From: Alphaproteobacteria bacterium
Lineage (GTDB): Bacteria > Myxococcota_A > UBA796 > UBA2385
Reading direction: 5' to 3'
NCBI GenBank assembly: GCA_040376505.1
Contig: JBEIQK010000080.1
Coordinates: 1-13,816, forward strand
DNA length: 13,816 bases
Positions 2 to 13,816 of the stretch are shown one piece after another. Under the pieces are notes generated by a model. That model had not been told where the DNA came from. It saw only the letters and a list, made by a program, of their open reading frames with translations, and searched no databases. The position numbers and the translations under genes are program-made. Within the stretch, counting starts at the first letter, position 1, and each line of letters starts with the position of its first letter.

Positions 2-154
2 GCCGACCTCCAAGATCTGATGCGACCGCGCAGCCTGCCAATCGGCCTCGGCCTCCTGGTCCTTCTGTGGACCATCAACAGCACGCCGCGCCTGTGGTCG
101 CTCCTCACCTTTGTCCTCCTGGCCCTCCTGTGGCGCCGCGGGAGCCGCTCATGA
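2..154 (+). CDS. 3' end of an upstream membrane-protein gene (partial, 5' end outside the window). The hydrophobic tail reads ...SLPIGLGLLVLLWTINSTPRLWSLLTFVLLALLWRRGSRS*
   Basis: Open frame from the window edge to a TGA at 152-154, with GC-rich third codon positions. The stop overlaps the ATG at 151 as ATGA. The peptide is strongly hydrophobic. The ORF track omits it because it has no start codon in the window. Confidence 0.4.
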   Translation, partial: ADLQDLMRPRSLPIGLGLLVLLWTINSTPRLWSLLTFVLLALLWRRGSRS

Positions 155-2382
155 TCGCCGCGCTCTTTGCCCTCCTCGGTTCGGTCGCCCTGGCCCAGGG
201 CGAGGCCGAGCTCCAGCAGGCCGCCGACGCCAATTTCGACGCCGTGATGATGCAGAACGAGGGCCAGGCCCTGGGCTATGTCAGCGGAGGCAACGCCGCC
301 GAGGCGCCGCCCCGGCCCGCGCCGCCGGTGTCGGATCCGGCGCCGGCCACCGAAGGCACCGTTCACCTGCCCCTGGCGCGCTACGACGCCCTGCGGGCCT
401 TGCTTGAACAGAGCGCTGCCCCCGCGCCCCAAACCGGCCTCGTGGTGCTGGGCTCCAGCAGCTACAGCGGGGAGGCCGTGCCCGGCGGCCTCTCCCTGCG
501 CCTGGAGCTGCAGATCACCCTGCGCGGGCCGGGGCGCTGGAAGACGGTGCCCCTGATCGGCGAAGAGGTGGCGGTGCGCTCGGCGCGCAGCCTGAACGGT
601 CCGATCGCGCTCGGTCACCAGTCGGGCTACCATGTCTGGGTCACCGACGCGGTGGGCGAGATCTCGCTCACCCTCGACCTCTTCGTGCCGGCCCGCGGGC
701 CGCGGGGCTCGCTGGAGTACGACTTTCTGGTCGCCCGCACGCCGATCACCCGCTTCGCCTGTCACTTCGACGCGGCCGGGCTGGAGCCTCGCCTCGAGAC
801 CGCCGTGCGGGCCGAGGTCACCGCCGGAGCCCAGGGCACCGACCTGATGGCCTGGCTCAATCCGACCAGCCGCATCCACCTTGTCGGCTTCAAGCAGCAG
901 AGCGAGAGCGCCGGGCTCACGGCCCGCCTCTACGCCGAGAGCCTGCACCTGCTCAGCCTGAGCGAAGATCGGGCCGATCTGTTCACGGTCATTCGCTACA
1001 ACATCCTGCAGGCCGGGGCCCAGCACTTCGACATCGCCATCCCGCCGGGCTGGAGCCTCGTCTCGGCCGAGGGAGCAGGCGGCCTGCGCGTCACCGCCGA
1101 GGCCCCCACCGCCGAGGGCACCCGCCTGCGCGGCGAGACGGCCTTCCCGATCCGCAGCGCCTACGAGATCTCCCTGCGCCTGGAGCGCGAGCTGCCCGAG
1201 CCCGGCGCGGAGCGCCTCTCCTTGTCGCCGCCCCAACCCCTGGGGGCCGAGCGGGAGTACGGCTGGATGGCCGTGGAGGCGGTGGGCAACCTGCGCGTCG
1301 AAGAAGAAGACCGCAGCGCCATCGCCGCGGTGGAGGTGCGCGAGCTGCCGCCCGAGATGGTGGAGAGCGCGGTGAGCCCGATACTGCGGGCCTGGCGCTA
1401 CCACCAGCCCGGCGCCCGCGTCTCCCTGCTGGCCACCCCCCTGCCCGAGAGCAAGCTGGCCAGCGGCTCGATCGACCGCCTGGAGGCCAGCACGGTGATC
1501 TCCCCCGAGGGCGGCTCGCTCACGGCCTTGCGGCTGGTGCTGCGCAACCGCCTGCGCCACAGCCTCGCCCTGCGCCTGCCCGGCGGGATGGTGGTCAAGT
1601 CCAGCCGCCTCGACGGCGAGCCCTTCACGCCCTCCCGGCGTGACGACGGCGCCCTGCTGGTGCCGCTGCGCCGTTCGGCCGGCGAGAACCGGCCCCGGCC
1701 CTTTGAGATCGAGCTGCTCCTGGCCGAGCAGCAGCCGGCCTTCTCGCTGCTCGGGGTCCGCAAGCCCCAACTGCCCACGGTGGAGCTGCCGGTCTCGGCG
1801 GTGGACTGGGAGCTTTGGGCCCCCGCCAACAACCGCTACTCGGCCCCCGACGGGGCGGTGCACAACGCCGCGGGGCCCGGCGCCCCTGCCCTCACCGTCG
1901 GCAGCACCCTGCCCCGCAACGGCACAGCCCTGCGCTACACCCGCAGCCACCTCGCCGCCGATCAGCACCTCGACGTCTCCTTCTGGTTCGCCCGGGGCTG
2001 GCTGCTGCTCCCCCTGCGCCTGCTCGCCGGGCTCGGCCTCCTGGCGCTGGGCGCCGCCCGCGGCCTCGCCACGCCACGGCGCCTCGCGGGGATGGTGCCC
2101 CTGGCCGGCCTGCTCTACCTGCTCGGCCACCGCGGCTGGATCGTCGCGCTGCCCCTCCTCGGCCTCGCCGGGGCGCGGCTGCGGGAGCTCGGCGTGGAGG
2201 GACTGCGGGCCGCCTTCTCCGCCGCCTTCGATCGCAGCGCCGAGCCCGCGCCGGGGAGCTGGCGGGCGGTGGGCTGGGGCGGCAAGCTCCTGCGCCTGGC
2301 GGTGGGGCTGCCCCTCGGTCTGGCCCTGCTGGGCGCGCTGCTCGACCTGCTGCGCACCGCCTTGCGCCCGGTGGGCGGCTGA
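151..2382 (+). CDS. Exported hypothetical protein (744 aa) with an N-terminal signal peptide and a C-terminal membrane anchor of several helices. Function unknown.
   Basis: The track ORF is 67-2382, but the in-frame ATG at 151 starts a classic signal peptide, MIAALFALLGSVALAQGEAEL. A GGGAG lies 6 nt upstream of it, and the ATG overlaps the upstream stop as ATGA. The last ~150 aa contain three or four hydrophobic helices (WLLLPLRLLAGLGLLALGAA..., MVPLAGLLYLLG..WIVALPLLGLAG, LLRLAVGLPLGLALLGALLDLL). High GC3 codon usage is maintained throughout. I recognise no catalytic motif. Confidence 0.7.
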   Translation: MIAALFALLGSVALAQGEAELQQAADANFDAVMMQNEGQALGYVSGGNAAEAPPRPAPPVSDPAPATEGTVHLPLARYDALRALLEQSAAPAPQTGLVVLGSSSYSGEAVPGGLSLRLELQITLRGPGRWKTVPLIGEEVAVRSARSLNGPIALGHQSGYHVWVTDAVGEISLTLDLFVPARGPRGSLEYDFLVARTPITRFACHFDAAGLEPRLETAVRAEVTAGAQGTDLMAWLNPTSRIHLVGFKQQSESAGLTARLYAESLHLLSLSEDRADLFTVIRYNILQAGAQHFDIAIPPGWSLVSAEGAGGLRVTAEAPTAEGTRLRGETAFPIRSAYEISLRLERELPEPGAERLSLSPPQPLGAEREYGWMAVEAVGNLRVEEEDRSAIAAVEVRELPPEMVESAVSPILRAWRYHQPGARVSLLATPLPESKLASGSIDRLEASTVISPEGGSLTALRLVLRNRLRHSLALRLPGGMVVKSSRLDGEPFTPSRRDDGALLVPLRRSAGENRPRPFEIELLLAEQQPAFSLLGVRKPQLPTVELPVSAVDWELWAPANNRYSAPDGAVHNAAGPGAPALTVGSTLPRNGTALRYTRSHLAADQHLDVSFWFARGWLLLPLRLLAGLGLLALGAARGLATPRRLAGMVPLAGLLYLLGHRGWIVALPLLGLAGARLRELGVEGLRAAFSAAFDRSAEPAPGSWRAVGWGGKLLRLAVGLPLGLALLGALLDLLRTALRPVGG

Positions 2383-2431
2383 GGGAGATACAGCAGCGCC
2401 CCCGTGCGTGGAGGATTCCGTGGCCCGCTAC

Positions 2432-2905
2432 ATGACCCTCGAAGGCTTTCAGGCGATTCAGGCCGAGCTCGACCGCCTGTGGAGCAAGGAGCGGCCCGAT
2501 GTGGTCGCCCAGGTCACGGCCGCCGCCGAGATGGGAGATCGCTCGGAGAACGCCGAGTACATCTACGGAAAAAAGCGCCTGCGCGAGATCGACAGCCGCC
2601 TGCGCTACCTCGGCAAGAAGGTGGAGGGCGTCACGGTGGTGAACCTCGCCGAGCAGGTGACGAGCCCGGTGGTCAAGTTCGGCGCGGTGGTGGTGGTCGA
2701 AGACGAGGACGGCGAAGAGAAGACCTGGCGCCTCGTGGATCAGGACGAGGCCGACGTGGCCCGGCGCCGCATCAGCGTGCAATCCCCGATCGGCAGGGCC
2801 TTATTGGGCAAGCGGGTGGGGGATGTCGTGGAGATCGACCTGCCCCGGGGGCGCACCTCGCTGGAGCTGCGCGGCCTGCGCTATGGGCCGGGGGAACCGG
2901 GCTAA
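2432..2905 (+). CDS. greB: Transcription elongation (transcript cleavage) factor of the GreB type in the GreA/GreB family
   Basis: Translation [60 protein letters not shown]...[18 protein letters not shown] matches E. coli GreB almost residue for residue ([35 protein letters not shown] ... SPMARALLKKEVGD). At 157 aa it has the expected length. The first 790 nt of track ORF 1640-2905 are a P/A/R-rich out-of-frame artefact overlapping the previous gene. In-frame GTG codons at 2420 and 2408 are alternative starts. A GGAGGA lies at 2411-2416. Confidence 0.9.
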   Translation: [157 protein letters not shown]

Positions 2906-2952
2906 ACCGTCTTTCTGCAATCGACATGGGGAGGGCCCCCCCGAAAGATCGG

Positions 2953-2971
2953 CGACCTGTGCTACAGGTCG
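2953..2971 (+). terminator. Perfect GC-rich hairpin (8-bp stem CGACCTGT/ACAGGTCG, 3-nt loop) about 50 nt after the greB stop, followed by GGGGGG rather than a U-tract. Candidate terminator or RNA-stability hairpin.
   Basis: The sequence cgacctgt-gct-acaggtcg is read directly from the window. There is no T-run downstream, so it is not a canonical intrinsic terminator. High-GC bacteria often use U-less hairpins. Confidence 0.3.
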
Positions 2972-2998
2972 GGGGGCTTGATTCCGACAGGAGATTCG

Positions 2999-3012
2999 CT
3001 GACCTCGGTCAG
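2999..3012. promoter_or_regulatory. 14-bp palindrome CTGACC-tc-GGTCAG, 76 nt upstream of the aer-like start. Candidate operator or protein-binding site.
   Basis: Perfect inverted repeat with 6-bp arms, read directly. It sits in the only sizeable intergenic region of the window (2906-3087). I could not place a convincing -35/-10 pair. The TTGACC at 3053-3058 has no good -10 partner. Confidence 0.2.
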
Positions 3013-3087
3013 GCGGCCCACACTTCCCCTTGGATTCAGGCGGCGTGTGTCCGTTGACCCGGTCCACCAGACAAGGAAGCCCCGCCC

Positions 3088-4605
3088 ATGCGCAACAACG
3101 GTCCGGTCACCCAACGGGAAGTCCCCTTCGGCGATGACGATCTGATCATCTCCCGCACCGACCTCAAGGGCCTGATCACCTTCGTCAACCCCACCTTCAT
3201 CCGCATCTCGGGCTTCACCTGGGAGGAGCTGCAAGGAAAGCCGCACAACATGGTGCGGCACCCCGACATGCCGACGGAGGCCTTCGCCGACCTCTGGGCC
3301 ACGGTGAAGAGCGGCCGGCCCTGGACCGGCATGGTGAAGAACCGCTGCAAGAACGGCGACCACTACTGGGTCTTCGCCGATGTGACCCCGCTGCGGCAGG
3401 ACGGGCAGGTGGTGGGCTACGTCTCGGTGCGCTCCAAGCCCACGCGCGAGCAGGTGCGCGACGCCGAGGCGCTCTACGCCCGGCTGCGACTGGGACAGGG
3501 CCCCAAGCGAGACCTCGCCTGGTTCCTGAACAATGTGCAAGCCGGCAGCTTGATGACCGGCACCACCCTCCTCGCCGGCGCCGCCGCCATCGCCAGCCTC
3601 GCCGGGGCGCCGATCCCCGCCGCCCTCTGCGCCGCCGGCGCCGCTGCGCTGAGCCTGTGGACCCGCAGCCGCACCCTGGAGCCCCTGCGCGAGCTGGAGG
3701 CGGCCCTGCTCACCGGCGGGCCGGAGTCGCGCCTCGAGAACCTGCGCAAAGACGAGGTGGGGCGCGCCAGCGCCGCCTACAACGTGTCCAGCGGTCGCTT
3801 CAACCGCGTCATCCGCGAGCTGGCCCGCACCAGCCGCGTCCTGGTCGATGAGGCGGCCCGGGTCTCGGCGGCGGCCGAGGAGATGAGCACCACCACCATG
3901 CACATCGCCCAGAGCTCCGAGCGACAGAAGGAGCGGGTGGAGACCCTGGCCAACGCCATGCAGTCGCTCACCGCGGCGATCGAGCAGGTGGCGATTCACG
4001 CCCGGGCCAGCGAAGAGCGGGCTGGCCTCGCCTACCGCACCACCCAGGAAGGCGAGCAGCGCGGCAACGAGCTCACCCGCAGCATCGGCGAGATCCGCAC
4101 CAGCACGATGAGCATGGTCTCGGCGGTCGACACAATTCACGATCTGGCCAGCCAGACCGGCCTCCTCTCCCTCAACGCCACGATTGAGGCGGCCCGCGCC
4201 GGTGAGGTGGGCAAGGGCTTCGCCGTCGTCGCCGCCGAGGTGCGCAAGCTGGCCGAGCGCTCTTCGGGGGCTGGCACCGAGATCCAAAGCCTGATCGAGC
4301 GCTGCGACACGGCGGTGGCCCAGGGGGTGCAGACCAGCCGGGCCACGGTCGACGACTGGAAGGGCGTGCGCGAAAAGGTGAGCGAGGTCGATCAGATGAC
4401 CCGGGAGATCAGCCGCACCACCCAGCTCCAGGCACAAACCACCAGCGACGTGGCCCGCCAGATCGCCGCCAGCAGCGAAGACATCGCCTCGGGCGCCACC
4501 GCCTCCAACCAGATGGCCTCGGCCGCCTCGGAGATCGCCCGCACCGCCGCCACCCTGGAGGATGTCTCGCGCGGCCTGCTGCTGACGGTTGAGCAATTCG
4601 CCTGA
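3088..4605 (+). CDS. aer: Aer-like aerotaxis / energy-taxis transducer: N-terminal FAD-binding PAS domain, membrane hairpin, HAMP domain and methyl-accepting chemotaxis protein (MCP) signalling domain
   Basis: The N-terminus [89 protein letters not shown] is nearly colinear with the E. coli Aer PAS domain (..[48 protein letters not shown]). A hydrophobic hairpin follows ([37 protein letters not shown]). The canonical MCP signalling core [34 protein letters not shown] is present. At 505 aa it compares with 506 aa for E. coli Aer. A good RBS, AAGGAAG, lies 8 nt upstream of the ATG. Confidence 0.9.
3127..3448 (+). other. PAS (FAD-binding, Aer-type) domain region of the transducer
   Basis: Contains the conserved NMVRHPDMP and [14 protein letters not shown] blocks typical of Aer PAS-FAD sensors. 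Confidence 0.8.
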
Positions 4606-4654: not shown

Positions 4655-5446
4655 ATGGATTCACCCCTCCTCCTCGCCCTGCTGGCGCCCCCCACTGTGG
4701 CCTACACCATCCTGTTGGCGCTCTGCGCGCTCTACTGGTCGATGGTGATCATCGGCGTGGCCGATCTCGACGGCTCCGATGGCGCCAGCCACGGCGTTGA
4801 AGGGCTGGTGGGCGCCGCCAAGGGCAGCGGCGAGGCCCTCGACGGCATCGTCGGCGTCGCCAAAGGCAGCGGCGAGGTCCTCGATGGGGCCATCGGCGCC
4901 GCCAAGGGTGCCCACGCCGATCTCGGCGATGTGGGCGTGTTCAGCAAGGTCTTCAGCGCCTGGCGGGTGCGCGGCGTGCCGGTCACAGTCTCGCTCAGCC
5001 TGCTGGCCTTGGCCGGCCTCTTCCTCAGCACGTTGCTGCTCGATCTTCTCCGCCCCCTGCTGCCCAGCCTTGGCGCCCAGGCGGCGGCGGGGATCGGCTC
5101 GCTCCTCGGCGGCGGCGCCTTCGCCCGCCTCGCCGCGAGCCCCCTCGCCGGCTTCTTCGAGGTCCGCCATGGCACCCGGCGGGCCGCCCTGCTCGGCCAG
5201 ACCGCCACCCTCGCCACCGGCTGGGTCAACGCCGAATTTGGCCAGGCCGAGCTCAAAGACGGCGGCGCCGGCCTGCTGCTGGCGGTGCGCTTTGACCAGC
5301 CCAATGACCTCAAGAAGGGCGACCCCGTGCTGCTGGTTCACTATGACACCGCCCGCCAGGCCTACATCGTCGAGCCTTTGCACCCACCCTCCCCCGCCGC
5401 TTCGGCCACCCCCCTCCGCACCCCACCCCAACGGGAGCTCTCATGA
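4655..5446 (+). CDS. NfeD/YqiJ-like inner-membrane protein with a C-terminal OB-fold, the usual partner of flotillin/SPFH proteins
   Basis: The track ORF starts at 4589, but the ATG at 4655 has a GGAG 6 nt upstream and begins a TM helix (MDSPLLLALLAPPTVAYTILLALCALYWSMVIIGV). A second TM helix follows (VTVSLSLLALAGLFLSTLLLDLL). The C-terminal soluble beta-rich segment GQTATLATGWVNAEFGQAELKDGGAGLLLAVRFDQPNDLKKGDPVLLVHYDTARQAYIVEPL has the glycine/valine pattern of NfeD-type OB domains. Its stop (TGA 5444-5446) overlaps the flotillin ATG (5443) as ATGA. The same gene order occurs in yqiJ-yqiK and yuaF-floT. Confidence 0.75.
   Translation: MDSPLLLALLAPPTVAYTILLALCALYWSMVIIGVADLDGSDGASHGVEGLVGAAKGSGEALDGIVGVAKGSGEVLDGAIGAAKGAHADLGDVGVFSKVFSAWRVRGVPVTVSLSLLALAGLFLSTLLLDLLRPLLPSLGAQAAAGIGSLLGGGAFARLAASPLAGFFEVRHGTRRAALLGQTATLATGWVNAEFGQAELKDGGAGLLLAVRFDQPNDLKKGDPVLLVHYDTARQAYIVEPLHPPSPAASATPLRTPPQRELS
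4808..4933 (+). repeat. Three in-frame tandem copies of a 42-nt / 14-aa unit inside the NfeD-like gene (VGAAKGSGEALDGI / VGVAKGSGEVLDGA / IGAAKGAHADLGDV)
   Basis: The repeat is visible in both nucleotide and protein sequence. It lies between the first and second TM segments. Confidence 0.6.
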
Positions 5447-7614
5447 GTCTTGAACTTGTCGCTGTCCTCATCATCTTCTCGGCGCTGCTGCTGGTCGGCA
5501 TCGGCGTGTTGGTCGCCCGCTGCTACCGCCAGGTAGAGCAGGGCCAGGCCCTCATCATCAACAAGATGAGCGGCGAGCCCGTGGTGACCTTTGGCGGCGC
5601 GGTGGTGTACCCGATCATCAACAAGGCCGAGGTGATGAACATCTCGGTAAAGACAATCGAGATCGAGCGCCGCGGCCAGGAGGGCTTGATCTGCAAAGAC
5701 AACATCCGCGCCGACATCAAGGTCACCTTCTTCGTCCGGGTCAACAAGACCGTCGAAGACGTGCTCAAGGTCGCCCAGGCCATCGGCTGCGAGCGGGCCA
5801 GCGACCAGAACACCCTCGAAGCGCTCTTTGTCGCCAAGTTCTCCGAGGCCTTGAAGACGGTCGGCAAGCGGCTTGAGTTTGAAGAGCTCTACACCCAGCG
5901 CGACAACTTCAAGGATCAGATCATCGAGGTCATCGGCCGCGACCTCAACGGCTATGTCCTCGAAGACGCCGCGATCGACTTCCTTGAACAGACCCCCCTG
6001 TCCAAGCTCGACAAGGAGAACATCCTCGACGCGCAGGGCATCCGCAAGATCACCGAGATCACCACCCAGCAGAACGTGAAGACCAACGACCTTCGCCAGA
6101 CCGAGCGCAAGGCCCTGGGAAAACAGAACCTGGAGGCCGACGAGGCGGTGATGGAGCTCGAGAAGCGCCGGGCCGACGCCGCCGCCCGCCAGAAGCGCGA
6201 GATCGACTCGATCCAGTCGCGGGAGTCCAATGAGGCCGCCCGGGTGAAGACCGAAGAAGAGAAGAAGGCCAAGATCGCCGCCGTGAAGGCCGATGAGGAG
6301 CTCAAGCTCACCGAAGTGGCCCGGGCCCGCCAGATCGAGATCGCCGAGAAGGACCGCCAGCGCGTCATCGCCATCAAGTCCGAGCAGGTCGAGAAGGACC
6401 GCCAGCTCGAAGTGCTGGTGCGCGAGCGCGAGGTGGAGCTCAACCGCATCGACAAAGACAAGGCCCTCGAAAAAGAGCGCAAGGAGATCGCCGATGTGGT
6501 GCGCGGCCGCATCGTCGTCGACCGGGCGGTGGCCGAAGAAGAGGAGCGCATCAAGACCCTGCGCACCAACGCCGAGGCCGAGCGCAAGAAGCAGGTGACC
6601 ATCATCGCCGCCGACGCGGCGGCCACCGAGAAGCTGGTGGCCCAGATCAAGGGCGCCGAGGCCAGCGAGAAGGCCTCCGAGCACAAGGCCCGCGAGCGCA
6701 TCACCCTGGCCAACGCCGCCCTCGACGCCGCCACCAAGGAGAGCCAGGCCAAGGTGCGCTTGTCGGAGGGCATGGCCGCCGAGGCCGCCACGCCCGGCAT
6801 CGCCGAGGCCCGCGGCAAGGAGGCCCTGGCCCAGGCCTACAAGAAGCAGGGCTTGATCGAAGCCCGCGTCACCCGCGAGAAGATGCTGGCCGAGGCCGAG
6901 GGCTCCGAGAAGAAGGGCCTCGCCGAGCTGCGTGTGCGCGAGGCCGCCATCTCCCTCGAAGAGCGCGAGGGTGCCGTCAAGGCCGGCATCACCACCGCCG
7001 TCGGCAACGCCGAGTCCGAGTCCCTGCGCTCCCGCATGTTCGCCGAGGCCGCCGGTCGCGAAGCCGGCGCCGTGGCCATCGAGAAGGTCGCCCTGGCCGA
7101 GGCCCGCGGTATCCAGGAGAAGATGCGCGCCGAGGCCGTGGGTCTGTCGGAGAAGCTCACTGCGATGAAGCAGATGGAGGGGGCAGCCCGGGCCCACGAG
7201 GAATTCCGCCTCACCCTGGAGAAGGACCGCGCCGTGCAGCTCGCCACCGTGGACGCGCGCATCAAGATGGCCGAGGCCCAGGCCCGGATCCTGGCCACCG
7301 CCTTCGAGCACGCCCAGATCAAGATCGTCGGCGGCGAGAGCGCCTTCATCAACCAGTTCACCCGCGCCGCCGCCTTTGGTGAGACGGTGGAGGGGGTGAT
7401 GGATCAGTCGCCGGTGGTCAAGCAGATCGTCGAAGGTGTGATGGAGGGCGGCCCGGTGAGCGACACGCTGAAGACCGCGAGCCTCGCCGCCCTGCTCACC
7501 CGCTTCATCCAGGGCAGCGAGGGCCCCGCCAAGGAGAAGCTCGAGCAGCTCCTCGACAAGGCCCGCAAGCTCGGCGTGGACACCGTGACCGGTGGTGTTG
7601 ACCATGTCCGCTGA
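5443..7614 (+). CDS. Flotillin-family SPFH/band-7 protein (YqiK/FloT-like), 723 aa, with an N-terminal TM helix, an SPFH domain and a very long E/A/K/R-rich coiled-coil tail
   Basis: An N-terminal TM helix (LVAVLIIFSALLLVGIGVLVA) is followed by an SPFH core (ALIINKMSGEPVVTFGGAVVYPIINKAEVMNISVKTIEIERRGQEGLICKDNIRADIKVTFFVRVNK...LEFEELYTQRDNFKDQIIEVIGRDLNGYVLEDAAIDF). About 450 aa of heptad-like EA/KR repeats follow, as in flotillins (KAKIAAVKADEELKLTEVARARQIEIAEKDRQRVIAIKSEQVEKDRQLEVLVREREVELNRIDKDKALEKERKEIAD...). The start overlaps the NfeD-like stop. A GGGAG lies 5 nt upstream. Confidence 0.9.
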   Translation: MSLELVAVLIIFSALLLVGIGVLVARCYRQVEQGQALIINKMSGEPVVTFGGAVVYPIINKAEVMNISVKTIEIERRGQEGLICKDNIRADIKVTFFVRVNKTVEDVLKVAQAIGCERASDQNTLEALFVAKFSEALKTVGKRLEFEELYTQRDNFKDQIIEVIGRDLNGYVLEDAAIDFLEQTPLSKLDKENILDAQGIRKITEITTQQNVKTNDLRQTERKALGKQNLEADEAVMELEKRRADAAARQKREIDSIQSRESNEAARVKTEEEKKAKIAAVKADEELKLTEVARARQIEIAEKDRQRVIAIKSEQVEKDRQLEVLVREREVELNRIDKDKALEKERKEIADVVRGRIVVDRAVAEEEERIKTLRTNAEAERKKQVTIIAADAAATEKLVAQIKGAEASEKASEHKARERITLANAALDAATKESQAKVRLSEGMAAEAATPGIAEARGKEALAQAYKKQGLIEARVTREKMLAEAEGSEKKGLAELRVREAAISLEEREGAVKAGITTAVGNAESESLRSRMFAEAAGREAGAVAIEKVALAEARGIQEKMRAEAVGLSEKLTAMKQMEGAARAHEEFRLTLEKDRAVQLATVDARIKMAEAQARILATAFEHAQIKIVGGESAFINQFTRAAAFGETVEGVMDQSPVVKQIVEGVMEGGPVSDTLKTASLAALLTRFIQGSEGPAKEKLEQLLDKARKLGVDTVTGGVDHVR

Positions 7615-10600
7615 GAAAGAGGGCGGACCGAGCCTGGACGCCGGCGGCAATTACGCCGTCATTCGGGCTCGCTTGGAGCAGAACACCGCCGAGCTGCGGA
7701 CGCGGGCCGAGGCTGTCAACCAGCGTCGCCGCGCCCTCTTCGGCGGCCAGGAGCTGGCCATCATCGGCAACGAGCGCGTGCGCACCGAGCACAACTGCGC
7801 GCCGCGCAACCTCGTACAGGTGAACGGTCGGCTCCTGTTCGGCTACAATGTCCAGTTCGCCCTCAAGAAGCAGGTGGCGGTGAGCGATGTCTTTTCGCTC
7901 CACGCCTGCGCGGAGACCGAAGGGGGCCTCGATCTCTCGGCCTTGCCGGCCAGCGAGATCGGCGGCCTCCTCGATGATCCGCGCTTTGTGAATGAGTTCC
8001 AGGAGCTGTACCAGTATTACGTCGACGCCCGCCTCGTGGTGGTGCGCCACGTCGGCAGCAAGCTCCTGGCCGTCTTTCGAACCGGCAAGGGCGACAATGA
8101 CATCCGCGTCTTTCGCTGGAGCCTCTCGCCGGGCAGCCCCCCGGTCTACATCGACAACCGCGGCGAGAAAGACCACACCCGCCCCGCCCAGCAGGACTTC
8201 GCCTGGACCGAGGCCAGCCGCGACGACCACATCCTCGGCCGCCACCCGCACATCAACATCCTCGACACGGTCTTTGTCGAGACGATCGGCGGCGATCTGA
8301 CCATCAAGATCGAGGACAACACCAACACCGGCCAGGGCATCTACGCCGAGCCGGTGGACGACCGCACCCAGTCCCTCGACGACGCCAACGTGGCCTACGC
8401 CAAGGTGGGCGGGCTCATCCTGCTCAAGATCCGGCCCTTTGGCGAGGCCAACTTCCGCTACCTGGTCTACAACACCCGCAGCAAGTCGGTCACCCGCATC
8501 GACGCCATCGGCCGGGCCTGCCTGCAGCTCCCCGAAGAGCACGGCATCATCTTTCCGGGCGGGTACTATCTACAAAACGGCGCCGTCAAGCTCTTTGACG
8601 GCGACACCACCGGCCTGCGCTTCAAGCGCGTCGTCAAGAGCCCCAATGGCGAGGATGTTCTGTACATCTTCGATCGGGAGGAGGCCGGCACCTATGTGCT
8701 GCTGCCCTACAACCTGATCCGCCAGGAGGTGTCGAACCCCATCGCCGCCGCCGGCTACACCTTCTTCGACGACGGCCGGATGCTGCTCCTCAAGTCGGAG
8801 GGCGACGAGCCGGTGCGGGTTCACCCGATCCAGATCTGGCGCACCCCCTTCTGTTCAGAGACCTGGGCCGCCGCCCACAGCAAGGGCGACGGCAGCTACC
8901 TCGCCCGGGTGGGCAATGGCGACCTCGTGCGCGGCCTCTCCGAGCTGCTGGCCCTCGGGCGGGCGGTGGAGAACCTGAGCCCCAGCCGCCTCGTGTACGA
9001 AGACCTGATCAAGGCCGCCACCCGGGCGCTTGACAACCTGCACTGGCTCGGCCACGCCGAGGCCGGCGGCCTGCGCGACACGGTCGACACGATCCGCAAG
9101 AACGCCGAGCTGATCATCGACGAATTCGAGAAGCTGGTCGCGATGCAGCAGAGCGCGCGCAATCAGCTCGCCCGCGCCACCGAATCCTGGGCCGAGCAGC
9201 GCCGCGGCCTGCGCCCCGACGAGCTGGCCAGCGTCTCGGCCTTCATGGGTGCGCTGACCGGCCTGCGCCAGACCCGCGGTCACCTGATCAGCCTGCGCGA
9301 GGTGCGCCACATCGACCTCCCCGCGATCGACACAATGGAGGCCGAGGTCGTCGCCGCCTTTGACAGCGTCTCGGCCGCCGCCGTGGTCTTTCTCAGTCGC
9401 CCCGACTCCCTGGTGCCGCTCCAGGGCGAGCTCGATCAGCTCCTCACCGACATCGAGGCCACCACCAAGGTGGTCGACATCAAGCCCAAGGCCGCCCGCC
9501 TCGCCGAGGTGGCCACCGGCGTGACCCTGCTCATCGAGGTGGTGAGCGGGCTGCAGGTCGAAGACCCCACCGTGCGCACCGCCATCCTGGAGCGCATCTC
9601 CGACGTGATGGGGCATAACAACCGGGTGCGCGCCGTGCTGGAGGCCCGCGGCAAGGAGCTCCGGGGCAAGGAGGCCCGGGCCGAGTTCGGCGCCCAGTGG
9701 AAGCTGCTCGGTCAGTCCACCGCCAACGCCATCGCCAGCGCCGACACGCCTGAGGCCTGCGATGAACAGTTGGGCCGGGTGCAGGTCGCCCTGGAGGAGC
9801 TCGACGCCCGCTTTGGCGAGTTCGATGACTACCGCACCCAGCTCATCGACAAGCGCGAGGAGGTGCTCGAAGCCTTCTCCGCCCGCCGCCAGGCCCTGGT
9901 CGACGAGCGCAACCGCAAGGTGATGGGGCTCTTCTCCGCCGCCGAGCGCATCCTCGAAGGGGTCACCCGCCGCGCTTCGACCTTCAAGGACGACGACGCG
10001 CTCAACGCCTGGTTCTCCTCCGACCCGATGATCAGCCGCCTGCGCGGGCTGGGCGAGCAGCTCGCCACGCTGGGCGACAACGTGAAGAGCGAAGAGCTGC
10101 AGAGCCGGCTCAAGGCCGCCCGTCAGTCGGCCCAGCGCCTGCTGCGCGACAAGACCGATCTGTTCACCGACGGCAGCGACCTCATCTCGCTCGGCAACCA
10201 CCGCTTCAGCGTCAACCGCACCGCCGTGGAGCTGGTGGTGGTGCCCCGCGGTGAGGGCATGGCCCTGCACTTGAACGGCACCGACTTCTTCGAAGCCGTG
10301 AGCGACGCCGACTTTGTGCAGACCCGCGACTTCTGGGGCCAGACGATGGCCAGCGAGACCGAGACGGTCTACCGCGCCGAGCACCTCGCCGCCTCGCTGC
10401 TCTTCGCCGCCGAGCGCGGCGAGGGCCCCCACAGCATCGAGTCCCTCTCGGCCCTGCCCGAAGGGGATCTGGCCGCCTTCGTGCGCAGCACCGCCGCCGA
10501 GCGCTATGACGAAGGCTACGAGCGGGGCGTCCACGACGCCGACGCCGCTGCCATCCTGCGCAGCCTGCTCAACCTTCGACAGGCCGCCGGGCTGCTCCGT

Positions 10601-13003
10601 TTTCCCGCCGCCGCCCGCTCGCTCGCAGTGCTCTTCTGGGCCTTCTTTGACGAGCGCGAGCCCCGGGAGGCCTGGCACCGCCAAGCCCGCGCCATCGGCC
10701 GGATGTTGCAGGTGATGCGCGACGAGCGCGGCCTCACCGTGCTCGCCGCCACCCTGGCCGAGCGGATGGGCCGCTACTTCACCGCCGTGCTGCCGAGCCT
10801 CGCCCCCCTGGCCACCCCGCCCACCCTGGCCCTGGCCGGCCGCTACCTCGTCTTTGAGCTGATGGCCGAGCGGCCGCGCTTCCTCGTCTCCGCCGACGCC
10901 CTGGCCCTGCGCGACGGGCTCTTCGTCGCCCTCGACGGCGCCGGCCTCCGCCTCGCCTTTGAAGAAGACCTGCGGGCCCTGGAAAACAGACCCGACGAGC
11001 GGGTGGCCCTCTGCGACGCCTGGCTCACCGGCTGGCTGACCGACCCGAGCCGGGCGCCCCTGGCCCACGCCCGCCTCGAAGCCCTGACCCTGCTCACCGC
11101 CGCCCGCCGCCTGGAGCGCGAGGGCTCCGTCGCCGCCCTCTCCGCCGAGGTGCCCGGCCTGCTCGGCCAGCACCCGCGGGTGGCCAACCGCACCCTGTCG
11201 CTGCGCCTCGACGAGGCCCTCGACCGCCTCGGCCGCCACCTGAACGAACGGGTGCCCGGCTTCGCCCGCTACCGCGCCGCCCGCAGCGCCCTGCTCAGCC
11301 GCGAGCGCAAGCGCCTGCGCCTCGACGAATTTGTGCCCAAGGTGATGACCACCTTCGTGCGCAACCGGCTCATCTCCGAGGTCTACCTCAAGCTGATCGG
11401 CGACAACCTCGCCAAACAGTTGGGCGCGGCCGGGGCCAACAAGCGCACCGACACCATGGGCATGCTTCTGCTCATCTCGCCGCCCGGCTACGGCAAGACC
11501 ACCCTGATGGAGTATGTCGCCAGCCAGCTCGGCCTCATCTTCATGAAGGTGAACGGTCCCGCCCTGGGCCATGAGGTCACCAGCCTCGACCCCTCGGAGG
11601 CCCCCAACGCCACCGCCCGCCAGGAGGTGGAGAAGATCAACCTCGCCCTGGAGATGGGCAACAACGCGATGTTGTACCTTGACGACATCCAGCACACCCA
11701 CCCCGAGCTGCTGCAGAAATTCATCTCCCTCTGCGACGGCACCCGGCGGATCGAGGGCGTGTGGAAGGGGGTCACCCGCACCTACGACCTGCGCGGAAAG
11801 AAGTTCTGTGTCGTCATGGCCGGCAACCCCTACACCGAGTCCGGCGCCCGCTTTCAGATCCCCGACATGCTGGCCAACCGCGCCGACACCTACAACCTGG
11901 GCGACATCCTGGGCGGCCGCGAGGATCTGTTCGCGCTCTCCTACGTCGAAAACTGCCTCGCCAGCAACGCCACCCTCTCTCCCCTCGCCGCCCGCGACCC
12001 CAAAGACCTGCACCGCCTCGTGGCGCTGGCCCAGGGGGCCGAGGTCGACACCGCCACCCTGTCGCACGCCTATTCGGCCGCCGAGCTGGGCGAGATCGTG
12101 AGCGTGCTGCGCCACCTCTTCGCTGTGCGCAACGTGCTGCTCAAGGTCAACGCCGAGTACATCCGCTCCGCCGCCCAGTCCGACGCCTACCGCACCGAGC
12201 CGCCTTTCAAGCTGCAGGGCAGCTACCGCAACATGGCCAAGATCACCGAGAAGATCGTGGGCGCCCTCACCCCCGCCGAGGTCGAGCGCATCATCACCGA
12301 TCACTATGTCTCCGAGGCCCAAACCCTCACCACCGGCGCCGAGCAGAACCTGCTCAAGCTGGCCGAGCTGCGCGGCATCCAGTCGCCTGAACAAAAGGCT
12401 CGCTGGGAGGAGATCAAGGCCGGCTTCGCCCGGGCCCAGCTGATGGGCGGCAAAGAAGACGATCCAGTCACCCGCGTCACCGGCACCCTGCTGGCCCTCG
12501 GCAAGGAGATGGGCGGCGCCCGCGAGGCGATGACCAGCCAGCTCGCCGGCCTGCGCGAGGCCCTGCGCAGCCAGGGCGGCGTGGAAGACCAGCTCTCCGA
12601 GGTGTCGGGCGAGCTGCGCGCCCTGCGGATGGCCTACACCGCCCCCAAGCTGGCCCCCGAGGCCCCGACCGGGCCGGTCACCCCCGCCGAGCCCGCCTGG
12701 CCCGGCCCGCACCTCGAGGTGGCCGCCGAGGCCGATCTGCTGCTGCGCCACGCTGTGCTCCTCGAAGTACAGCGCGCCCTCGTCGCCCACGGCCGGATGC
12801 AGGCCCGGGCCGCCGAGCCCCTGCGCACCGCCGACCTGATCCTGGGCGCCACGATGCCGATCATGCGCGAGCTGACCGAACAGGTGGGCGAGCTGCTCAC
12901 CGACCGCCTCGCCCCCGCCGAGCGCGACCAGGCCATCGACGAGCTGCGCCGCCGGGTCGCCCGGGCGATCAGCCGGCTCAGCGAGGTCGCGCCGCGGGCT
13001 TGA
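7604..13003 (+). CDS. Giant hypothetical protein (about 1,799 aa) with a single MoxR/AAA_5-class AAA+ ATPase module near residue 1300. The ~1,290-aa N-terminal region and ~320-aa C-terminal region are unassigned.
   Basis: One uninterrupted high-GC3 reading frame of 5.4 kb. Walker A is LLLISPPGYGKTTLMEY (nt ~11471-11512). Walker B is AMLYLDDIQ (~11666-11692). The sensor/arginine-finger block CVVMAGNPYTESGARFQIPDMLANRADTY (~11812-11890) matches the NP...G...lP.AllDRF signature of MoxR/dynein-related AAA_5 ATPases. The likely start is the ATG at 7604 (MSAEKEGG...), which overlaps the last 11 nt of the flotillin gene. The track's GTG at 7592 is an alternative. The N-terminal region is predicted to be beta-rich (e.g. 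FRYLVYNTRSKSVTRIDAIGRACLQLPEEHGIIFPGGYYLQNG) and the central region alpha-helical. Confidence 0.8.
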   Translation: MSAEKEGGPSLDAGGNYAVIRARLEQNTAELRTRAEAVNQRRRALFGGQELAIIGNERVRTEHNCAPRNLVQVNGRLLFGYNVQFALKKQVAVSDVFSLHACAETEGGLDLSALPASEIGGLLDDPRFVNEFQELYQYYVDARLVVVRHVGSKLLAVFRTGKGDNDIRVFRWSLSPGSPPVYIDNRGEKDHTRPAQQDFAWTEASRDDHILGRHPHINILDTVFVETIGGDLTIKIEDNTNTGQGIYAEPVDDRTQSLDDANVAYAKVGGLILLKIRPFGEANFRYLVYNTRSKSVTRIDAIGRACLQLPEEHGIIFPGGYYLQNGAVKLFDGDTTGLRFKRVVKSPNGEDVLYIFDREEAGTYVLLPYNLIRQEVSNPIAAAGYTFFDDGRMLLLKSEGDEPVRVHPIQIWRTPFCSETWAAAHSKGDGSYLARVGNGDLVRGLSELLALGRAVENLSPSRLVYEDLIKAATRALDNLHWLGHAEAGGLRDTVDTIRKNAELIIDEFEKLVAMQQSARNQLARATESWAEQRRGLRPDELASVSAFMGALTGLRQTRGHLISLREVRHIDLPAIDTMEAEVVAAFDSVSAAAVVFLSRPDSLVPLQGELDQLLTDIEATTKVVDIKPKAARLAEVATGVTLLIEVVSGLQVEDPTVRTAILERISDVMGHNNRVRAVLEARGKELRGKEARAEFGAQWKLLGQSTANAIASADTPEACDEQLGRVQVALEELDARFGEFDDYRTQLIDKREEVLEAFSARRQALVDERNRKVMGLFSAAERILEGVTRRASTFKDDDALNAWFSSDPMISRLRGLGEQLATLGDNVKSEELQSRLKAARQSAQRLLRDKTDLFTDGSDLISLGNHRFSVNRTAVELVVVPRGEGMALHLNGTDFFEAVSDADFVQTRDFWGQTMASETETVYRAEHLAASLLFAAERGEGPHSIESLSALPEGDLAAFVRSTAAERYDEGYERGVHDADAAAILRSLLNLRQAAGLLRFPAAARSLAVLFWAFFDEREPREAWHRQARAIGRMLQVMRDERGLTVLAATLAERMGRYFTAVLPSLAPLATPPTLALAGRYLVFELMAERPRFLVSADALALRDGLFVALDGAGLRLAFEEDLRALENRPDERVALCDAWLTGWLTDPSRAPLAHARLEALTLLTAARRLEREGSVAALSAEVPGLLGQHPRVANRTLSLRLDEALDRLGRHLNERVPGFARYRAARSALLSRERKRLRLDEFVPKVMTTFVRNRLISEVYLKLIGDNLAKQLGAAGANKRTDTMGMLLLISPPGYGKTTLMEYVASQLGLIFMKVNGPALGHEVTSLDPSEAPNATARQEVEKINLALEMGNNAMLYLDDIQHTHPELLQKFISLCDGTRRIEGVWKGVTRTYDLRGKKFCVVMAGNPYTESGARFQIPDMLANRADTYNLGDILGGREDLFALSYVENCLASNATLSPLAARDPKDLHRLVALAQGAEVDTATLSHAYSAAELGEIVSVLRHLFAVRNVLLKVNAEYIRSAAQSDAYRTEPPFKLQGSYRNMAKITEKIVGALTPAEVERIITDHYVSEAQTLTTGAEQNLLKLAELRGIQSPEQKARWEEIKAGFARAQLMGGKEDDPVTRVTGTLLALGKEMGGAREAMTSQLAGLREALRSQGGVEDQLSEVSGELRALRMAYTAPKLAPEAPTGPVTPAEPAWPGPHLEVAAEADLLLRHAVLLEVQRALVAHGRMQARAAEPLRTADLILGATMPIMRELTEQVGELLTDRLAPAERDQAIDELRRRVARAISRLSEVAPRA
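11450..11900 (+). other. AAA+ (MoxR/AAA_5-like) ATPase module within the giant protein
   Basis: Walker A GYGKTT, Walker B hhhhDD (LYLDDIQ), and the NPYTESG...IPDMLANRAD sensor-2-like motif, all read from the translation. Confidence 0.7.
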
Positions 13004-13061
13004 CGAATCTGTTGCACAGTCGCCCCGCCCTCGGGCAACCTTGAGCGTGATCGAGGTGCCC

Positions 13062-13352
13062 ATGGCCGTTCCCCGCCCGCCCATCGCCGCCGACGCCCTC
13101 TGTGGCGGACCCCTCCGCCAGGTCCCCCACCAGCTCCCCGAGGCCCCCGACCTCGCCGACAAGCCGCTGCTGGCCCTCCTCGCCGAGCGTCACACGCTGC
13201 ATGCCGCCCGCCACGCCCCCCTCTCGGCCGCCGCCCGGGCCCGCCACACCCTGCGCACCGAGCAGCTCGACGACGAGCTGGCCCTGCGCAGCCTCTTCGA
13301 AGAGGCCGACCCGCGGCGCCTCGGCGCGCCCCTCGCCGGCCCCCAGGCCTGA
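13062..13352 (+). CDS. Small hypothetical protein (~96 aa), Pro/Ala/Leu-rich
   Basis: In-frame ATG at 13062 within track ORF 13041-13352. GC3 is very high (nearly every codon ends in G or C), as in the certain genes here. I recognise no motif. The overlapping alternative frame 13102-13401 reads as P/S/T/R-rich nonsense and was rejected. Confidence 0.35.
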   Translation: MAVPRPPIAADALCGGPLRQVPHQLPEAPDLADKPLLALLAERHTLHAARHAPLSAAARARHTLRTEQLDDELALRSLFEEADPRRLGAPLAGPQA

Positions 13353-13384
13353 GCGCCCCCCTCCCCGCGCCCGGGCCGAGGCCG

Positions 13385-13816
13385 ATGTCCAGCGCCCTTG
13401 ACCACCGCCTGCGCAGCCCGCGCGCCGCCGACCGCCTCGCCGCCCTGATGGCGATCGGCGCCGAGGGCCGCTTTGAGCTCGCCGAGGCCGTGCGCGCCCT
13501 CCTCGACGACGAGGCCCCCTACGTCTTCCTGCACCAAGGCGCCGAGACCCGCATCGCCGAGCTGCGCCTCGCCGCCCTCACCACCCTCCAGCAGCTCCAC
13601 CGGGCCGCCGAGCTGCCCCTCTCCACGCGCCCCATCGCCGTGCGCAGCGCCACCCCCACCGACGTGGTGCTCGGCCTCGGCGACCTCTGGCTGCGCCGAA
13701 TGGAGCCCGCCGCCGCCCGCGCCGCCCGCGCCGCCGCCGACGACTTCCTCGACGAGCGGGTGCGCCCCGACGCCGAAGAGCGAGCGGTGCTGCGGGCCTG
13801 GCGGGTGCTGGCCCAG
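13385..13816 (+). CDS. 5' part of a hypothetical protein with HEAT/PBS-lyase-like alpha-helical repeats (partial; continues beyond the window)
   Basis: ATG at 13385 with the frame open to the window edge, so it is absent from the track. The translation is MSSALDHRLRSPRAADRLAALMAIGAEGRFELAEAVRALLDDEAPYVFLHQGAETRIAELRLAALTTLQQL... It shows the D..VR..A..AL..IG pattern typical of HEAT-like repeats and high GC3. Confidence 0.4.
   Translation, partial: MSSALDHRLRSPRAADRLAALMAIGAEGRFELAEAVRALLDDEAPYVFLHQGAETRIAELRLAALTTLQQLHRAAELPLSTRPIAVRSATPTDVVLGLGDLWLRRMEPAAARAARAAADDFLDERVRPDAEERAVLRAWRVLAQ

Follow-up and report, generated by a model that had tools for sequence, protein, structure and literature searches.

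Three genes in the window, the 13,816-nucleotide stretch of contig JBEIQK010000080.1 analyzed here, encode a predicted YqiJ-type membrane protein (A), a YqiK-type flotillin recognized by homology (B), and a giant AAA+ ATPase (C). The association of A, B, and C is far beyond chance, and the three genes very probably constitute a conserved functional module. The best reading of this module is the one suggested in the initial annotation of this DNA, in which the flotillin scaffold is either remodeled by the ATPase or serves it as a platform. The association of these genes had already been reported from computational work in 2020 and 2024 and is not a discovery of this work.

Gene organization

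The GC content of the window is approximately 70%. The GC content at the third codon position (GC3) is 0.85–0.98 in exactly the frames of A, B, and C, which identifies all three as real coding frames (Table 1). The identical contig in ENA (ERZ27247984, k141_172754) carries an independent gene call that gives the same A, B, and C and the same start for C. The coordinates, the ATGA shared by A and B, and the 11-nt overlap between B and C that were reported in the initial annotation are borne out by this gene call and by a direct reading of the sequence. An alternative GTG start for C at 7592 would extend the B/C overlap to 23 nt. The initial annotation also called the genes translationally fused, and this description is incorrect: each overlap joins genes that lie in different reading frames, without fusion. 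A scan for promoters and terminators, which is uninformative in DNA of 70% GC, found no terminator-like site on the + strand between A, B, and C; this absence is weak evidence.

Table 1 Features of the A-B-C genes and of the ATPase, with positions in the window
Feature	Residues of C	Position (nt)	Strand	Description
Gene A		4655 (ATG)–5446	+	263 aa; predicted YqiJ/DUF1449-family (NfeD-like) membrane protein
GGGAG		5433–5437	+	5 nt upstream of the A/B ATGA
A/B junction		5443–5446	+	ATGA, formed by the ATG of B and the TGA of A; 4-nt overlap, read from the sequence
Gene B		5443–7614	+	723 aa; YqiK-type flotillin by homology
B/C junction		7604–7614	+	11-nt overlap; ATG of C at 7604, TGA of B at 7612–7614
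Gene C		7604 (ATG)–13003	+	1,799 aa; soluble giant AAA+ ATPase; NCBI name 'DNA repair ATPase'
DUF3686 domain	30–480	7691–9043	+	Pfam E 9e-191
Helical rod, spectrin-repeat-like	419–853	8858–10162	+	AlphaFold2 model
DUF7902	601–685		+	Pfam E 7e-24; within the helical rod
AAA+ module	~1285–1500	11456–12103	+	Walker A/B, sensor-1, candidate Arg finger

Upstream of A, the window encodes a 771-amino acid protein without an assigned function, a GreA/B-like factor, and a PAS-MCP protein. The open reading frame at 2404–3057 is not a gene, since GC3 places the real gene in another frame, and long antisense open reading frames such as 8855–13162 (− strand) are high-GC artifacts. The genes downstream of C on the source contig, which encode proteins of 96, 250, and 238 amino acids and a Metallophos protein, were rejected as members of the module; none of them recurs in the other 99 loci.

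Conservation of the gene neighborhood

Conservation of the neighborhood, which the initial annotation had named as the check on its proposal, is extensive. Loci were obtained from a single-protein scan of genome contigs (at least 8 loci), a tblastn search of plasmids, and an alignment-based metagenome scan (80 loci). The C relatives encoded by the sampled loci have identities of at least 41%, and a small number of loci occur twice (for example, L004 is L068, and L027 is L043). A homologue of B lies directly upstream of C on the same strand in 73 of the 80 loci whose upstream sequence extends over 2.3 kb or more (91%). An A-like open reading frame, recovered with an HMM built from the neighbors, is also present in 66 of the 68 B-C loci with enough room for one (97%). 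The loci are distributed over the Myxococcota, Gammaproteobacteria, Actinomycetota, Bacteroidota, and Deinococcota, the trio is inherited as a unit in at least five phyla, and the identity of C across phyla is fairly uniform at 41–60%. The correlation between the identities of B and C in a mirror-tree comparison (r = 0.74) was rejected as evidence for their co-evolution, because shared ancestry alone predicts it.

Genome loci L001, L004, L005, and L008 contain A-B-C, and L007 contains the end of B; the genome contigs with A-B-C belong to Lysobacterales and Myxococcota. B is located immediately before C in the plasmid or chromid records of P. fluorescens (pQBR103), Streptomyces, Hymenobacter, Deinococcus, and Nonomuraea, and in those of Proteus, Halomonas, Vibrio, and Photobacterium. 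A small open reading frame with multiple transmembrane (TM) segments lies ahead of the flotillin gene in all of the plasmid and chromid records except one from Streptomyces. A look-up begun from a B homologue gave the A-like gene, B, and C in the same order. About 9% of the C homologues are solitary and have no adjoining flotillin gene (L002, L003, L027/L043, L033, L073, and L083); therefore, C can exist without an adjacent B. Solitary C genes occur in, for example, the Lentisphaerae.

The spacing between B and C is more variable than their order. The distance from the stop of B to the start of C has a median of approximately 100 nt in 70 homologous loci and is zero or less in only 3 of them. 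The other case of overlap is found in Nonomuraea, which likewise has a high GC content. The initial annotation had deduced a matched stoichiometry from the tight overlaps. Overlaps are rare in the family, and therefore a fixed stoichiometry deduced from them does not generalize; co-directional adjacency does.

A and B are predicted to be a YqiJ–YqiK pair

The 263-residue A protein has N-terminal hydrophobic segments at residues 3–39 and 105–136, a Gly/Ala-rich repeat loop, and a conserved soluble domain at the C terminus (residues ~170–245). A homologue search retrieved only 5 database proteins because A evolves fast. A family of 21 members was gathered from the neighboring loci, and it aligns well. 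Comparison of the family profile with E. coli YqiJ using hhalign gave a probability of 95.2% and an E value of 2.5e-8 over 133 columns, and the match covers both the TM part and the C-terminal domain. A also matches a Hymenobacter protein annotated as DUF1449 (E 2.4e-8). The YqiJ alignment together with the DUF1449 annotation of the Hymenobacter member identifies A, at the level of sequence, as a YqiJ-type (NfeD-like) flotillin partner with multiple predicted TM segments. A had no match in Pfam or NCBIfam even at E ≤ 10, including the NfeD and YqiJ models. No PDB sequence was matched, whether the search started from A alone or from the family profile.

B is a clear homologue of YqiK, and its similarity places it in the flotillin branch of the SPFH superfamily. 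A tblastn comparison of B with E. coli yqiK gave 29% identity over 456 amino acids (residues 1–444 of B; E = 2.5e-37), and thousands of close relatives of B are labeled YqiK or 'flotillin family protein'. B has an SPFH region, a long helical region (residues ~210–600) with a combined E, K, R, A, and Q content of 60%, and a flotillin-type C terminus, and it is approximately 170 residues longer than E. coli YqiK. A single hydrophobic TM segment is located at the N terminus (residues 1–29; score 3.07) and is followed by Arg residues. Because these positive residues come after the lone TM segment, the SPFH and coiled-coil body of B is predicted to be on the cytoplasmic side of the membrane. We did not detect a match of B to the PDB sequences or, even at E ≤ 10, to NCBIfam or Pfam, including the Band_7/SPFH model PF01145. 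PF01145 is present in several B homologues at 53–57% identity, and for this reason the missing match is a gap in model sensitivity and not counter-evidence to the homology deduced from the alignments.

These comparisons sustain the NfeD-like/flotillin pair of the initial annotation through the hhalign match of A to YqiJ and the tblastn match of B to yqiK. The initial annotation had also proposed HMM searches of all three proteins. These were productive for C, which matched DUF3686, DUF7902, AAA, and AAA_5, and gave no Pfam or NCBIfam match for A or B.

Domain structure of C

C has more than 6,339 homologues. Two AlphaFold2 models of C were computed, each from a 56-sequence alignment. The model of residues 1–1000 (pLDDT 84.5) predicts a helix (residues 11–46), a beta-rich domain of approximately 30 strands (residues 52–413), the helical rod, and a small beta domain (residues 860–898). 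The beta-rich DUF3686 domain was termed a beta-propeller by Ravi et al. (PMC11237479). The model of residues 951–1799 (pLDDT 78.7) contains a well-predicted helical domain, the AAA+ core, a lid, and helices at the C terminus, with a beta-hairpin at residues 1383–1394 ahead of sensor 1. DUF3686 has 704 representatives at 50% clustering and is essentially confined to proteins of 1,600–2,000 amino acids. The full-length members fall in this same size range, and therefore the architecture is fixed. A hydrophobicity scan of C found no strongly hydrophobic TM-like segment; one 19-residue window exceeded the cut-off of 1.6, and its score of 1.67 (residues 580–598) is borderline. C also has no HExxH protease motif. 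The lack of a strong TM-like segment and of a protease motif suggests that C is recruited to the membrane rather than anchored in it.

The AAA+ module contains a Walker A motif (SPPGYGKTT, residues 1292–1300), a Walker B motif (MLYLDD, residues 1356–1361), sensor-1 residue Asn1408, and a candidate Arg finger, Arg1426. Gly1295, Lys1298, Thr1299, Asp1360, Asp1361, Asn1408, and Arg1426 are invariant across the C family. The sequence evidence for the AAA+ clade is ambiguous. Pfam detects a single AAA domain (PF00004) near residues 1288–1370 (E 6e-8, 33.6 bits) and, at a lower score, AAA_5 (E 1e-5, 25.7 bits; cut-off 22), and it gives no match to AAA_3. Weak matches to RuvB_N were found (E 2e-5). 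A comparison of the AAA+ profile with the PDB aligned the Walker A region only and favored classical AAA proteins, so it is uninformative about the clade. Some C homologues carry the JGI name 'MoxR-like ATPase', and by our own reading the motif NPYTESG...IPDMLANRAD of C resembles the motif that follows sensor 1 in MoxR proteins.

Structural comparison points to the MoxR family. The solved structures nearest to the AAA+ model of C are those of the MoxR-family proteins CbbQ and NorQ, followed by RuvBL1 (11.0) and p97 (10.6), and Foldseek concurs on the best TM-scores. With CbbQ and NorQ as the nearest neighbors, the 'MoxR-class' label of the initial annotation is supported structurally, and we describe the AAA+ module as MoxR-like on the basis of the predicted model. 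MoxR ATPases usually act with a VWA-domain adaptor. No VWA partner was found among the recurrent neighbors of the C loci. A single VWA gene is present in locus L101, four genes from the trio and outside the operon.

Accessory genes and earlier description of the operon

A gene for a DUF2170 protein (YjfI, CesT/Tir-like) and a gene for PspA/IM30 are located directly upstream of the trio in approximately 14–17 loci, and PspA adjoins the trio in the annotated records of pQBR103 and Hymenobacter. Downstream of the trio, a rhomboid protease gene is present in 6 loci and a gene for a PLD/HKD (PLDc_2) protein in 8. A Zn-ribbon protein is encoded nearby in 12 loci, and YaeQ in 5. A LexA-family regulator is encoded divergently, upstream of the Hymenobacter trio.

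The initial annotation presented the module as undescribed. The trio, including the form without PspA, was in fact described by Ravi, Anantharaman et al. (mSystems 2024, PMC11237479; bioRxiv version 2020) as YqiJ/YuaF, band-7/flotillin, and beta-propeller/coiled-coil/AAA+ genes within PspA–CesT/Tir operons. Their 'abbreviated operons' comprise only the flotillin and the YqiJ/YuaF protein, in some cases together with the ATPase, have a wide distribution, and were proposed to work with PspA encoded elsewhere (PMC11237479). The same paper reports a PLD gene in some Proteobacteria, lists a Dokdonia example with the identical gene order, and makes the same functional prediction as made here. The window shares the gene order of this operon class, YqiJ/YuaF, band-7/flotillin, and beta-rich/coiled-coil/AAA+, and the ATPase of its Bacteroidota example from Hymenobacter (L012) is 43% identical to C. 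Compared to the full operons, the window is without the CesT/Tir (DUF2170)–PspA dyad and without the PLD gene. The absence of the dyad upstream defines the window as an 'abbreviated operon'. PMC11237479 contains no structure, AAA+ clade, or frequency. The additions made here are the MoxR-like assignment, the spectrin-like rod, the linkage figures of 91% and 97%, and the finding that the gene overlaps are local.

Proposed function of the module

We lean toward C being an ATP-driven remodeler that acts at a cytoplasm-facing flotillin scaffold in membrane stress. B would form a cage or microdomain of the flotillin type, and A would be its NfeD-like companion in the manner of other SPFH–NfeD pairs. 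The N-terminal beta-rich domain and the rod of C may dock the ATPase onto the B/A scaffold, where an oligomeric AAA+ ring would use the energy of ATP hydrolysis to build, take apart, or reshape the flotillin lattice. Alternatively, the substrates of C may be proteins, or polymers of the PspA/ESCRT-III type, that reside at the scaffold and are remodeled or extracted there. The setting of this action would be an envelope or membrane stress response, and the recurrence of PspA/IM30, DUF2170/YjfI, and rhomboid genes next to the trio counts for the link to stress. The absence of the usual MoxR VWA adaptor, the ~9% of C homologues that are solitary, and the rarity of the overlaps count against the remodeler reading.

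A bolder form of this idea is possible, and we hold it only tentatively: C would act as the motor in a skeleton that underlies the bacterial membrane, in which the spectrin-like rod and beta-rich head sit on flotillin cages and a MoxR-type ring drives assembly, disassembly, or client extraction. If this is true, C would be the first energy-consuming remodeler in any organism that is dedicated to flotillin microdomains, and its action would account for the turnover of bacterial flotillin assemblies.

The PspA genes that adjoin the trio also suggest a different substrate. The flotillin–YqiJ pair could serve as a landing platform only, and the true substrate of C could be a PspA/IM30 (ESCRT-III-type) polymer whose gene is nearby or elsewhere, which would make C an analogue of Vps4 that takes PspA assemblies apart at the damaged membrane. 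This reading is favored by the PspA/IM30 and DUF2170 genes directly upstream of the trio in pQBR103, Hymenobacter, and the other loci counted above, and by the suggestion of Ravi et al. (PMC11237479) that abbreviated operons work with PspA from elsewhere. We consider it unlikely that the scaffold is a landing platform alone.

A defense function, on which the initial annotation had speculated, is less probable still. The trio would then be an anti-phage or conflict system in which C senses infection and the flotillin–YqiJ pair is the membrane effector. In favor of such a system, the module is distributed patchily among phyla and is frequently carried by megaplasmids and chromids, a PLD (HKD), YaeQ, or neighboring PIN gene accompanies it in some loci, and giant ATPases are common in defense systems. 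However, PADLOC returned only trivial P-loop matches for C (the best was IetA, E 8e-4 over 30 amino acids) and none for A or B, and there were 0 homologues in 50,697 phage records. The core is without a nuclease, protease, or NADase effector, the recurrent neighbors are membrane-stress genes, and the C sequences are fairly uniform across phyla, all of which argues against such a system. It is very hard to credit that C is a DNA-repair ATPase whose adjacency to a flotillin is functionally meaningless, as the NCBI/Pfam names 'DNA repair ATPase' and 'ATPase involved in DNA repair', the weak RuvB_N matches, and the divergent LexA-family regulator in Hymenobacter might suggest, because the RuvB similarity extends over only ~45 residues surrounding Walker A, C showed no DNA-binding domain, a literature search gave no paper that backs the name, and adjacency to a membrane protein in 91% of the loci and in five phyla is no coincidence.

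The name 'DNA repair ATPase', carried by thousands of proteins, has no visible basis, and these proteins should be read as membrane-associated MoxR-like remodelers. A dedicated ATPase that accompanies a single subfamily of flotillins at over 90% of the sampled loci is an experimental handle on what bacterial flotillins do and on how their assemblies are built and dismantled. Literature searches found no experimental work on the C ATPase family, a large and widespread putative partner of bacterial flotillins.

Relationship to known systems

E. coli yqiJ-yqiK, B. subtilis yuaF-floT, and S. oneidensis SO1376-SO1377 are two-gene NfeD-like/flotillin operons. A and B are homologous to YqiJ and YqiK, respectively, by the comparisons above, and have the same gene order. 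The two-gene operons stop at the flotillin gene, and in S. oneidensis SO1377 is followed by a terminator (PMC1468410). In the window, a third gene of 5.4 kb is added.

The AAA+ module of C differs from the proteins that it most resembles in structure. CbbQ and NorQ have the VWA partners CbbO and NorD, whereas the C loci show no recurrent VWA/MIDAS partner. Unlike CbbQ and NorQ, the AAA+ module of C is fused to approximately 1,280 N-terminal residues that are predicted to form the beta-rich, rod, and helical domains. The similarity of C to PDB entries at the sequence level is limited to Walker A, and the AAA_3 match is missing.

HflK/C–FtsH and prohibitin–m-AAA each combine a scaffold of the SPFH family with an AAA+ machine. 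The trio resembles them in pairing an SPFH scaffold with an AAA+ protein, and this resemblance is a functional analogy. Compared to FtsH, C has no strong TM-like segment and no HExxH protease domain, and its AAA+ module appears MoxR-like and not of the classical FtsH type. HflK/C faces the periplasm, whereas B is of the flotillin type and probably faces the cytoplasm. Because C has neither a TM anchor nor a protease domain and is not of the Vps4 type, the trio is homologous to none of these systems, and its likeness to HflK/C–FtsH, prohibitin–m-AAA, and ESCRT-III–Vps4 is a proposed functional analogy.

Composition of the trio across loci

The YqiJ-like membrane protein (A), the YqiK-type flotillin (B), and the giant AAA+ ATPase (C) are not always found together. 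The flotillin and ATPase genes are both present on the Streptomyces sp. 2P-4 plasmid (L019) and in locus L039, and a YqiJ-like gene was undetectable upstream in either locus. B and C thus form the tighter core, with A being dispensable in some lineages. The loop behind the first transmembrane segment of A is highly variable in length among homologues. In the window, this loop carries a Gly/Ala-rich repeat with a 14-residue unit (GAAKGSGEALDGIV...), encoded by a 42-nt tandem repeat. In the Lentisphaerae loci L003 and L002, the C homologue stands alone, with neither a flotillin nor a YqiJ gene upstream. These solitary proteins have an additional C-terminal tail with a double Cys-x-x-Cys that is zinc-ribbon-like.

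Locations of the features in the window and the compared loci
Feature	Location	Strand	Remarks
771-aa protein gene	window 67-2382	+	real coding sequence by GC3 (GC at third codon position)
GreA/GreB-type factor-like gene	window 2432-2905	+	recognized by eye
PAS + MCP-signal chemoreceptor-like gene	window 3088-4605	+	505 aa, soluble
Tandem repeat	window 4811-4905	+	inside gene A; 2.3 copies, 83% match
Four genes 3' of C	window 13062-13816; L100 (source contig) 9165-12074	+	co-directional
Solitary C homologue	L003 9956-15346; also L002		Lentisphaerae
PIN-like ORF	L003 8487-8906		near solitary C homologue
Trio	L010 85455-104449		P. fluorescens SBW25 plasmid pQBR103; region with the trio and the yjf-like cluster

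Genes flanking the trio

The 771-residue protein has a signal-like N-terminal segment and several hydrophobic stretches toward its C terminus, and it had no matches in Pfam or NCBIfam. The following gene encodes what we take to be a GreA/GreB-type transcript cleavage factor-like protein, which starts with MTLEGFQAIQAELDRLW and also contains RSENAEY. An ORF mechanically listed at 2404-3057 lies in a different frame and was rejected as noncoding by GC3. The PAS and MCP-signal gene ends 50 nt before gene A on the same strand, and the two could be co-transcribed; its adjacency to the trio is not kept in other loci. The genes downstream of C encode proteins of 96, 250, and 238 residues and a 355-residue Metallophos phosphoesterase, and none of the four was seen again near the trio in other loci.

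On pQBR103, a 425-kb environmental megaplasmid, the trio closes a complete yjf-like cluster, which comprises a glutathionylspermidine-synthase-like gene together with PspA, rhomboid, DUF2491, DUF350, and DUF1190. This plasmid places the trio in a culturable and genetically tractable host.
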